Source of the DNA: Escherichia phage A6-6
Length of the DNA: 64,000 bases
Strand: one strand, 5' to 3'
Sequence record: PQ510734.1
Of the stretch, positions 45,369 through 46,531 are shown piece after piece. The notes below the pieces were generated by a model. The model made no database searches. It was not told the DNA's origin and saw nothing but the letters and a program-made list of their open reading frames with translations. Within the stretch, counting starts at the first letter, position 1, and each line of letters opens with the position of its first letter. Both the position numbers and the translations under genes were made by a program.

Positions 45369-45551
45369 ATGGAATTGGTAAAGGTAGTTTTTATGGGGTG
45401 GTTTAAGAACGAAAGCATGTTTACTAAAGAAATCACAATGATGAAAGATGACGTTCAATGGGCTACTACTCAATATGCTGAAGTTAATAAAGCGCTAGTT
45501 AAAGCTTTTATTGATGATAAGAAAGTATGTGAAGTGGATTGCCGAGGATAA
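45369..45551 (+). CDS. dmd: Dmd antitoxin (inhibitor of RnlA/LsoA)
   Basis: 60 aa, MELVKVVFMGWFKNESMFTKEI..., position immediately downstream of 41 as in T4. Confidence 0.75.
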   Translation: MELVKVVFMGWFKNESMFTKEITMMKDDVQWATTQYAEVNKALVKAFIDDKKVCEVDCRG

Positions 45552-45810
45552 TATGCATATTGTTTTATTTAAACCTACTCCGTATAACGTCAGGAAAAAT
45601 ACTCAATTCAAAGCACTTATTGCAGATACGTGGGAATTGGTATTAGATATTCCGGCAGAAGAAAGTCCTCCATTTGGTCGAGTGGAATTTATTAAGTTTG
45701 CTGTGCGCCCTACGAAGCGACAGATTCGTCAATGCAAAAGATACTTTCGTAAAATCGCCAAGTTAGAGAAACAGTTTGTAACATGTGATTATGCAGAAGT
45801 TTTAAAATAA
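45552..45810 (+). CDS. hypothetical basic protein (61.4 position)
   Basis: ATG 45552 after dmd stop. Confidence 0.4.
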
Positions 45811-45868
45811 TTATTTACTTTTATTGGAAATTGAGATACTATAAACATAAACTACTGAGGAGATTATC

Positions 45869-46162
45869 ATGAAAAAATTTATCTTTGCTGCAATTTTTGC
45901 TTTATCTTCTTGCGCTGCTCAGCCTGCTATGGCGGGTTATGACAAAGATTTGTGTGAATGGTCTATGACTGCAGATCAGACTGAGGTTGAAACTCAAATT
46001 GAAGCAGATATTATGAATATCGTTGAGCGTGATCGTCCTGAAATGAAAGCTGAAGTGCAAAAACAGCTTAAGTCTGGCGGTGTAATGCAGTATAATTATG
46101 TTCTGTATTGCGATAAAAACTTTAATAATAAAAATATCATCGCTGAAGTGGTAGGTGAGTAA
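45869..46162 (+). CDS. sp: Spackle (periplasmic superinfection-exclusion protein)
   Basis: 97 aa, signal peptide MKKFIFAAIFALSSCAAQPAMA, GAGGAG RBS. Confidence 0.8.
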   Translation: MKKFIFAAIFALSSCAAQPAMAGYDKDLCEWSMTADQTEVETQIEADIMNIVERDRPEMKAEVQKQLKSGGVMQYNYVLYCDKNFNNKNIIAEVVGE

Positions 46163-46174
46163 TTAGAGGTTAGT

Positions 46175-46531
46175 ATGTATAGTTCTGAATTTTCATATTT
46201 AAAAATGGAAAAAATTTCATACGATTTTATAGATGAAAAGGTTTATTACAGTTTCCATGAACCGCGTTTTAATAGTGAGGTTGGGTTTATTGTAGTAAAA
46301 GACAATTTCATTTTAAAAATATATTCGGCATTAAAGGATTTTCACTACGAAAATATTAACCTAAAATTTGATAAAGAAAACGTTCGTAATTGCGCAGTAA
46401 CAATTACAGGAAATAAAGGTACATGCGTTATGCTATCTGATGAAATTAATGATTTGCTAAATGATGCCGAAAAAGTTACTATTCCATCGATTGATGACCA
46501 AATTTTTAATGCTTTTATGAATAGAGGTTAA
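46175..46531 (+). CDS. hypothetical protein (61.2 position)
   Basis: 118 aa ORF. Confidence 0.45.
   Translation: MYSSEFSYLKMEKISYDFIDEKVYYSFHEPRFNSEVGFIVVKDNFILKIYSALKDFHYENINLKFDKENVRNCAVTITGNKGTCVMLSDEINDLLNDAEKVTIPSIDDQIFNAFMNRG

Follow-up and report, generated by a model that had tools for sequence, protein, structure and literature searches.

The small genes that lie between the replicative helicase gene 41 and the primase gene 61 of Escherichia phage A6-6 (PQ510734.1) raise the question of which host toxins or defences they are directed against, and in particular what a 118-aa ORF in a segment unlike T4 might contribute. The analysis covered a window of 64 kb, the whole stretch of DNA at hand, with NC_000866 as the T4 reference for pairwise comparisons. 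The 41–61 interval spans 1.4 kb and holds an early promoter and five small plus-strand genes, as had been described in an earlier note made from the sequence, and the ORF list gives the order 41, dmd, 61.4, sp, 118-aa ORF, 61.1, 61. Each of the five small ORFs is preceded by a GAGG-type Shine–Dalgarno sequence. The features of the interval are as follows.

43883..45310, plus strand: gene 41, replicative helicase, the left flank; a 475-aa ORF, named from the gene 41/helicase annotation in matching records
45311..45339, plus strand: early promoter of dmd and tifA, TTTACA-17-TATAGT, the -10 box preceded by TG; 10/12 matches in the promoter scan
45317..45352, plus strand: stem-loop over the dmd promoter, with the -10 box in the loop region; a PeSL-like composite
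45369..45551, plus strand: dmd (61.5), 60 aa; antitoxin against RnlA/LsoA by identity to T4
45553..45810, plus strand: tifA (61.4), 85 aa, pI 9.8; inhibitor of the ToxN endoribonuclease by identity to T4
45814..45842, plus strand: putative second promoter before sp, TTTACT-17-TACTAT; a weak consensus match read from the sequence
45869..46162, plus strand: sp (61.3), 97 aa; periplasmic Spackle, inhibitor of the gp5 tail lysozyme by identity to T4
46175..46531, plus strand: 118-aa single-module AdfA-family paralogue of the ‘RB32ORF033c’ type, assigned by PF23813, PHROG 4122 and hhalign
46533..46697, plus strand: 61.1, 54 aa, with an N-terminus like a capsid targeting sequence (CTS); PHROG 1823
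46700..47728, plus strand: gene 61, primase, the right flank; a 342-aa ORF, named from the DNA primase annotation in matching records

The interval is 97–98 per cent identical in DNA sequence to many sequenced Tequatrovirus genomes, with which it shares its gene order. The products of dmd, 61.4, sp and 61.1 are 96–100 per cent identical to their T4 counterparts, and this establishes the identity of the locus: taken as a whole, it is with high probability best explained as the T4-type ‘anti-TA island’ of a Tequatrovirus phage. An anti-TA island was proposed for this region by Srikant et al. (2022; PMC9391042), and the island's inhibitors cover three unrelated toxin classes (PMC9391042). The suggestion that a compact counter-defence island follows gene 41 was therefore right in substance, but it had been published before; an anti-toxin gene cluster of T4-like phages is already in the literature, and little is new about the locus overall.

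The first gene of the island encodes a protein identical to T4 Dmd at 60/60 residues, as expected from its earlier naming as a 60-aa Dmd antitoxin. It matches PF17587 over its full length (156.9 bits against a cut-off of 27, E 1.6e-46, residues 1–60 on model positions 1–60), and its PDB match is 5HY3_B, ‘Antitoxin Dmd’. With 100 per cent identity there is nothing relevant that differs from T4 Dmd, for which the structure 5HY3 has been solved, and the protein can be expected, on that identity, to bind and inhibit the RnlA/LsoA RNase toxins.

The second gene begins with an ATG 1 nt past the dmd stop codon, an operon arrangement as in T4. Its product had been listed as a basic 86-aa ORF starting at 45552; it is indeed basic (pI 9.83), but it starts at 45553 and has 85 aa. 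It has the same length as T4 gp61.4 and agrees with it at 83/85 positions, the sole differences being V69A and I83V; it scores 72.7 bits against PF23945 (DUF7279; cut-off 24.5) and belongs to PHROG 2375. A PDB sequence search with this protein returned no match. The T4 protein has been renamed TifA, for ToxN inhibitory factor A (Srikant et al. 2022, PMC9391042; Guegler et al. 2023, PMC10853763), so that an ORF which had been called uncharacterised corresponds, at 83/85 identity, to a counter-defence protein that has already been characterised. Over-expressed TifA inhibits ToxN, and amplification of dmd-tifA lets T4 escape toxIN (PMC9391042). TifA binds ToxN together with RNA, by which ToxN is trapped in a ribonucleoprotein complex, and TifA homologues of T2 and T6 (>96 per cent identical to T4 TifA) rescue cells from ToxN toxicity (PMC10853763). 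The A6-6 protein keeps K55, R56 and R59 of the basic RNA-binding patch as well as the interface residue Phe41, and by its 98 per cent identity to the T4 protein it would be expected to inhibit ToxN. Residue 41 sets the potency of TifA, and the variants F41S and F41H outperform the T4 wild type (PMC10853763). With Phe41 the A6-6 protein is like T4 TifA, the weaker allele compared with F41S/F41H, and by analogy with T4 a single copy of it may be too weak against toxIN.

The third gene product is 94/97 identical to T4 Sp and matches PF25676 (T4_Spackle) with 153.3 bits and E 2.8e-45, residues 1–96 on model positions 1–96, signal peptide included. Its PDB match is 6X6O, the solved structure of T4 Spackle, from which it differs (97 per cent identity) in nothing relevant. 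Spackle blocks the tail lysozyme gp5 of a superinfecting phage, that is, it brings about superinfection exclusion; the earlier identification as periplasmic Spackle holds, but its inclusion among the counter-defence functions does not.

The last small gene, 61.1, encodes a protein identical to T4 gp61.1 at 52/54 positions. Its N-terminus, MKTYKEFIKE, agrees at 8 of 10 positions with the T4 capsid targeting sequence MKTYQEFIAE (PMC8442874) and keeps the I-x-E prohead-protease site, which bears out, as far as sequence can, the description of this product as a CTS-bearing peptide. If it is packaged and injected, a 44-aa gp61.1 peptide would be encoded inside an anti-toxin island. The CTS-like N-terminus is kept in T4 and VR25 and is different in the 92-aa RB69 homologue. 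Further plus-strand ORFs with CTS-like starts lie in the window at 1869 (105 aa) and 2203 (157 aa). None of the five island proteins has a model in NCBIfam.

The early promoter, of the sigma-70/T4-early type, follows immediately on the stop codon of gene 41 and drives a two-gene operon of dmd and tifA; the T4 version is nearly identical, and in T4 dmd-61.4 is driven by an early promoter (PMC9391042). The stem-loop that overlaps it has 11+3 pairs and a folding energy of -17.7 kcal/mol (z = -3.85), and none of 200 shuffled sequences was as stable in the RNA fold. It has no T-run and is therefore not a classical terminator; it resembles the PeSL composites of T4-type phages, promoter/stem-loop elements that have been proposed to mediate module shuffling (PMC4122927). 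Two substitutions separate the window from T4 within 45317–45352, both of them in the stem. The putative promoter before sp falls below the threshold of the promoter scan and is the same in T4 except for a 2-bp indel just downstream: at 45840, 3' of the putative -10 box, the window has 2 bp fewer than T4 (GAGATAC--TATAAACAT vs GAGATACTATATAAACAT). PMC9391042 speaks of a promoter downstream of tifA. Together, sp, the 118-aa gene and 61.1 make up a second transcription unit.

The remaining gene, between sp and 61.1, is the one for which the comparison with T4 is least direct. Both flanks of the swapped cassette are 97–100 per cent identical to T4 in the window/T4 DNA alignment, and the following features locate the cassette and the parts of the gene discussed below.

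46164..46487, plus strand: cassette unlike T4, from the sp stop codon to about 46487; the T4 counterpart is about 585 bp
46388..46390, plus strand: Asn72 codon, at the AdfA specificity-switch column by MAFFT and hhalign (RB69 R164/T4 H165)
46487..46531, plus strand: family tail SIDDQIFNAFMNRG with the stop codon, which also holds the 61.1 ribosome-binding site

The two ORFs that had been put forward as candidates for anti-toxin functions were to be aligned with the T4 61.4 and 61.2 products, and the homology was positive in both cases: the 85-aa product is TifA (83/85), and the 118-aa product, which had rightly been called uncharacterised, belongs to the AdfA family. It is, however, a short paralogue and not the orthologue of T4 61.2 (AdfA, 208 aa), the anti-DarT factor A of LeRoux 2022 (as cited in PMC9391042 and PMC11825919). 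The protein scores 34.2 bits against the Pfam family AdfA (PF23813), above the gathering threshold of 27, and covers only model positions 113–211 of 211; it matches phrog_4122, its own 118-aa family, over its full length. Its alignment with T4 AdfA is confined to residues 109–208 at about 35 per cent identity, with the last 14 residues identical, and outside the tail the identity to AdfA is about 25–35 per cent. Profile–profile comparison by hhalign relates the short forms to the C-terminal halves of long AdfA with a probability of 98.5 per cent and E = 2.4e-15. The 118-aa protein has no counterpart of the N-terminal ~100 residues of long AdfA and hence lacks its two-module architecture of 208–212 aa. 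What it has in common with AdfA (gp61.2 of T4/RB69) is the slot between sp and 61.1, a homologous C-terminal module and an identical SIDDQIFNAFMNRG; what sets it apart is the length of 118 aa without the N-terminal module, and an Asn72 in place of the His/Arg164 of AdfA.

The tail occupies residues 105–118 and fits the AdfA C-terminal motif (S/A)(I/V)DDQIFNAFM(N/K)R(G/D), which is invariant in the alignments of all long and short forms and the VR25 paralogues. Because the ribosome-binding site of 61.1 falls within it, this segment might have been conserved for a reason in the DNA; the VR25 short form, though, keeps the tail peptide through five synonymous codon changes, which places the conservation at the protein level and not merely in the 61.1 ribosome-binding site. 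The ratio dN/dS (Nei–Gojobori) is 0.05–0.30 among the window, T2, RB51, SsoM_113, Sf21 and VR25 copies, with dS saturated in some of these pairs. The 118-aa gene is a genuine, selected, one-module AdfA paralogue that consists of the C-terminal module and the invariant C-terminal helix.

In other respects the protein is an ordinary member of its group. The RB32ORF033c/PHROG 4122 proteins (T2 ‘gp61.2’, RB51ORF035) are 95–99 per cent identical to it and share its layout, with no substantive difference. Pfam and PHROGs already include the family and the sequence group, GenBank has them in hundreds of records, and the RB51 GenBank record notes ‘similar to gp61.2’ for the short form. The T2 record LC348380 starts the short gene at an internal Met (108 aa, 1531–1857); an ORF with a GAGG ribosome-binding site starts 30 nt upstream and gives 118 aa (1501–1857), as in the window.

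AlphaFold2 models the short form (pLDDT 83, pTM 0.71) as a five-strand beta-meander (8–64), a helix (67–78), a strand and a second helix, and predicts the tail helix 106–115 with low pLDDT. In BFVD the model matched family members only, among them a 145-aa VR25 protein that is 17 per cent identical; this protein, VR25_038, is encoded directly upstream of the VR25 short form and ends in SVDDQIFNAFMKRD. Structure comparison of the 118-aa model showed no likeness to DarG or any solved toxin inhibitor, and a PDB sequence search with the AdfA-family profile gave no match. The model of long AdfA is of mediocre confidence (pLDDT 72) and has five strands, a helix and a strand in each half. The two halves resemble each other in sequence with a BLASTP E of 0.008 and an hhalign probability of 4–32 per cent, a motif recurs between them (FVxVKxNEI/GIFVKDNRI), and the hmmsearch profile hit to P0019 falls into two matched stretches. 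Together these likenesses are suggestive only of an internal duplication by which long AdfA would have arisen from a beta5-alpha-beta module.

One column of this module is of particular interest. RB69 AdfA acquires the ability to bind and neutralise DarT1 by the substitution R164H, and natural active alleles have His at this position (PMC11257639/PMC11825919). The numbering was checked as R164 in RB69, H165 in T4 and H167 in RB51, and both the short and the long model place the column in the helix that follows the beta-meander. The His that DarT1 binding calls for is absent from the 118-aa protein, in which the residue is Asn72, or Cys73 by BLASTP, where the column is shifted by one residue. 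The Sf21/P0005 short forms do have His. With Asn or His among short forms and Arg or His among long ones, the switch column is polymorphic in both paralogues.

A tblastn search located the short form in 336 phage records; identity reached >=90 per cent in 292, including T2 (94.9 per cent), RB32, RB18 and PP01; about 38 records hold forms of 45–50 per cent identity, such as that of VR25, a Gaprivervirus. Long AdfA occurs in 487 records by the same search. Junction queries found the long gene followed in tandem by the short one in about 155 records and sp followed directly by the short gene, as in the window and T2, in about 140, and by subtraction from 487 about 330 have the long gene only, as T4 and T6 do. 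In RB51, Sf21, KMB23 and PhiZZ6 the order is sp, long adfA, short gene, 61.1. Because long and short forms co-exist in tandem in many phages, they are paralogues and not alleles. Within the 64 kb of the window there is a single copy of the family tail motif, which indicates that no long adfA is hidden elsewhere in it. The family itself is tiny and phage-restricted: its profile, run against 1.84 billion representatives, retrieved 7 proteins, of which 6 were real, with lengths of 41–210 aa. P0026 (1921 aa, 8 matched stretches) was rejected as spurious, since both Pfam and its composition mark it as a eukaryotic coiled-coil repeat protein. Word-indexed homologue searches returned close relatives only, 5 short and 16 long forms.

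The tails may also preserve a record of how these layouts arose. In tandem phages, one to three marker nucleotides distinguish the tail of the long gene (GAC GAT...AAA GGT, or ...AGA GAT) from that of the short gene. The T4 long gene has a short-type tail (GAT GAC...AGA GGT) followed directly by 61.1, an arrangement that would be expected if two ~45-nt tails had recombined and the short gene had been lost. Just 5' of the ATG of the short gene, the window and T2 have 14 nt (TAGAGGTTAGTATG) that are almost a copy of the family's 3' end (TAGAGGTTAATATG), a likeness consistent with a tandem ancestor that lost its long gene. A simple microhomology deletion at TGAATA or AAT, leading from tandem to short-only, was considered and rejected, as the junction contains an extra T and an A-to-G change.

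What the short protein does has to be judged against the experiments on its long relative and on AdfN. T2, which in the AdfN paper ‘naturally lacks an adfA homolog’, suffers a four-log drop in plating on DarTG1 when adfN is deleted, and T4 ΔadfA has no phenotype, though over-expressed T4 AdfA works (PMC11257639/PMC11825919). T2 does, however, carry the short gene, 95 per cent identical to the window copy. As T2 ΔadfN is nevertheless sensitive to DarTG1, the short protein at its native level fails against that DarT1; but since T4 AdfA is also silent at native level, the T2 result excludes only a major role against DarTG1. There is reason to think that the 118-aa protein is most likely a toxin-binding inhibitor with a specificity other than DarT1. 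Like AdfA, it would bind a host toxin stoichiometrically and inhibit it; the specificity would lie in the helix that follows the beta-meander and contains Asn72, and the conserved C-terminal helix would provide a common docking element. The target would most probably be a DarT-type DNA ADP-ribosyltransferase allele other than the DarT1 tested, although such an anti-DarT reading is offered tentatively, its chances being somewhat short of even.

Its nearest competitor holds that the protein inhibits some other host defence or toxin and that the AdfA-like module is a scaffold only. In its favour are the insufficiency of the native-level short protein in T2 ΔadfN on DarTG1, a switch residue that is neither His nor Arg, an identity to AdfA of only ~25–35 per cent outside the tail, and the inhibitors of three unrelated toxin classes in the island (PMC9391042). 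Yet the one family member whose partner is known binds DarT1, and the tandem paralogues diversify at the very same switch column, which suggests variation on one theme; a target outside DarT is accordingly regarded as rather unlikely. That the short protein would act only as a heteromer partner or regulator of long AdfA is far less probable still: translational coupling of the tandem in ~155 records and a shared tail that could mediate association speak for it, but ~140 phages, the window phage and T2 included, have the short gene without long adfA, and the single tail motif in the window agrees with them. Most improbable of all is that the ORF is a decaying, functionless remnant of an adfA duplication. 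T4 and T6 do without the gene at no known cost, and no phenotype of it is known, as might be so for a remnant, but a dN/dS of 0.05–0.30 (saturated-dS pairs included), intact ORFs in ~300 records at >=90 per cent identity, homologues of 45–50 per cent in Gaprivervirus, a confident AlphaFold2 fold and a good ribosome-binding site are hardly the marks of decay.

Toxin inhibition as the preferred reading can be extended to the family as a whole, with correspondingly less assurance. The short form would be a minimal autonomous AdfA-family inhibitor, of which long AdfA duplicated the module; the helix DDQIFNAFMNRG would dock, and residue 72 (Asn/His) would tune the protein toward DarT or toward another ADP-ribosyltransferase toxin unlike DarT1. 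Arrays of long and short genes in tandem would then form a two-specificity anti-toxin repertoire, trimmed by recombination between the identical tails to the long gene only in T4 and to the short gene only in T2 and the window phage. That all of these parts hold jointly is doubtful. Independently of the target, the ‘adfA’ slot comprises two paralogous genes, one long with two modules and one short with a single module, and phages scored as ‘adfA-negative’, for example T2, still have a short AdfA-family gene. The short form is a natural minimal construct for mapping the toxin-contacting part of AdfA, and a candidate inhibitor of DarT variants or other toxins that have no known phage antagonist.

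In other genera the 41–61 interval is a hyperplastic region. That of RB69 carries inserted imm and imm.1 and four ORFans, and VR25 has 145-aa and 119-aa paralogues in tandem, each with DDQIFNAFMKR(D/G) at its end, and a tifA-like gene that lies downstream of them and not beside dmd. Beyond gene 61, a T4 Dam query gave zero tblastn matches in the whole 64-kb window, and positions 47725–47995 contain, in place of the dam that T4 has between 61 and 56, a 66-aa reverse-strand ORF of the RB32ORF030w type (membrane-like by sequence) with gene 56 directly after it. The 66-aa reverse-strand ORF takes the place of dam in RB32 and RB51 as well.
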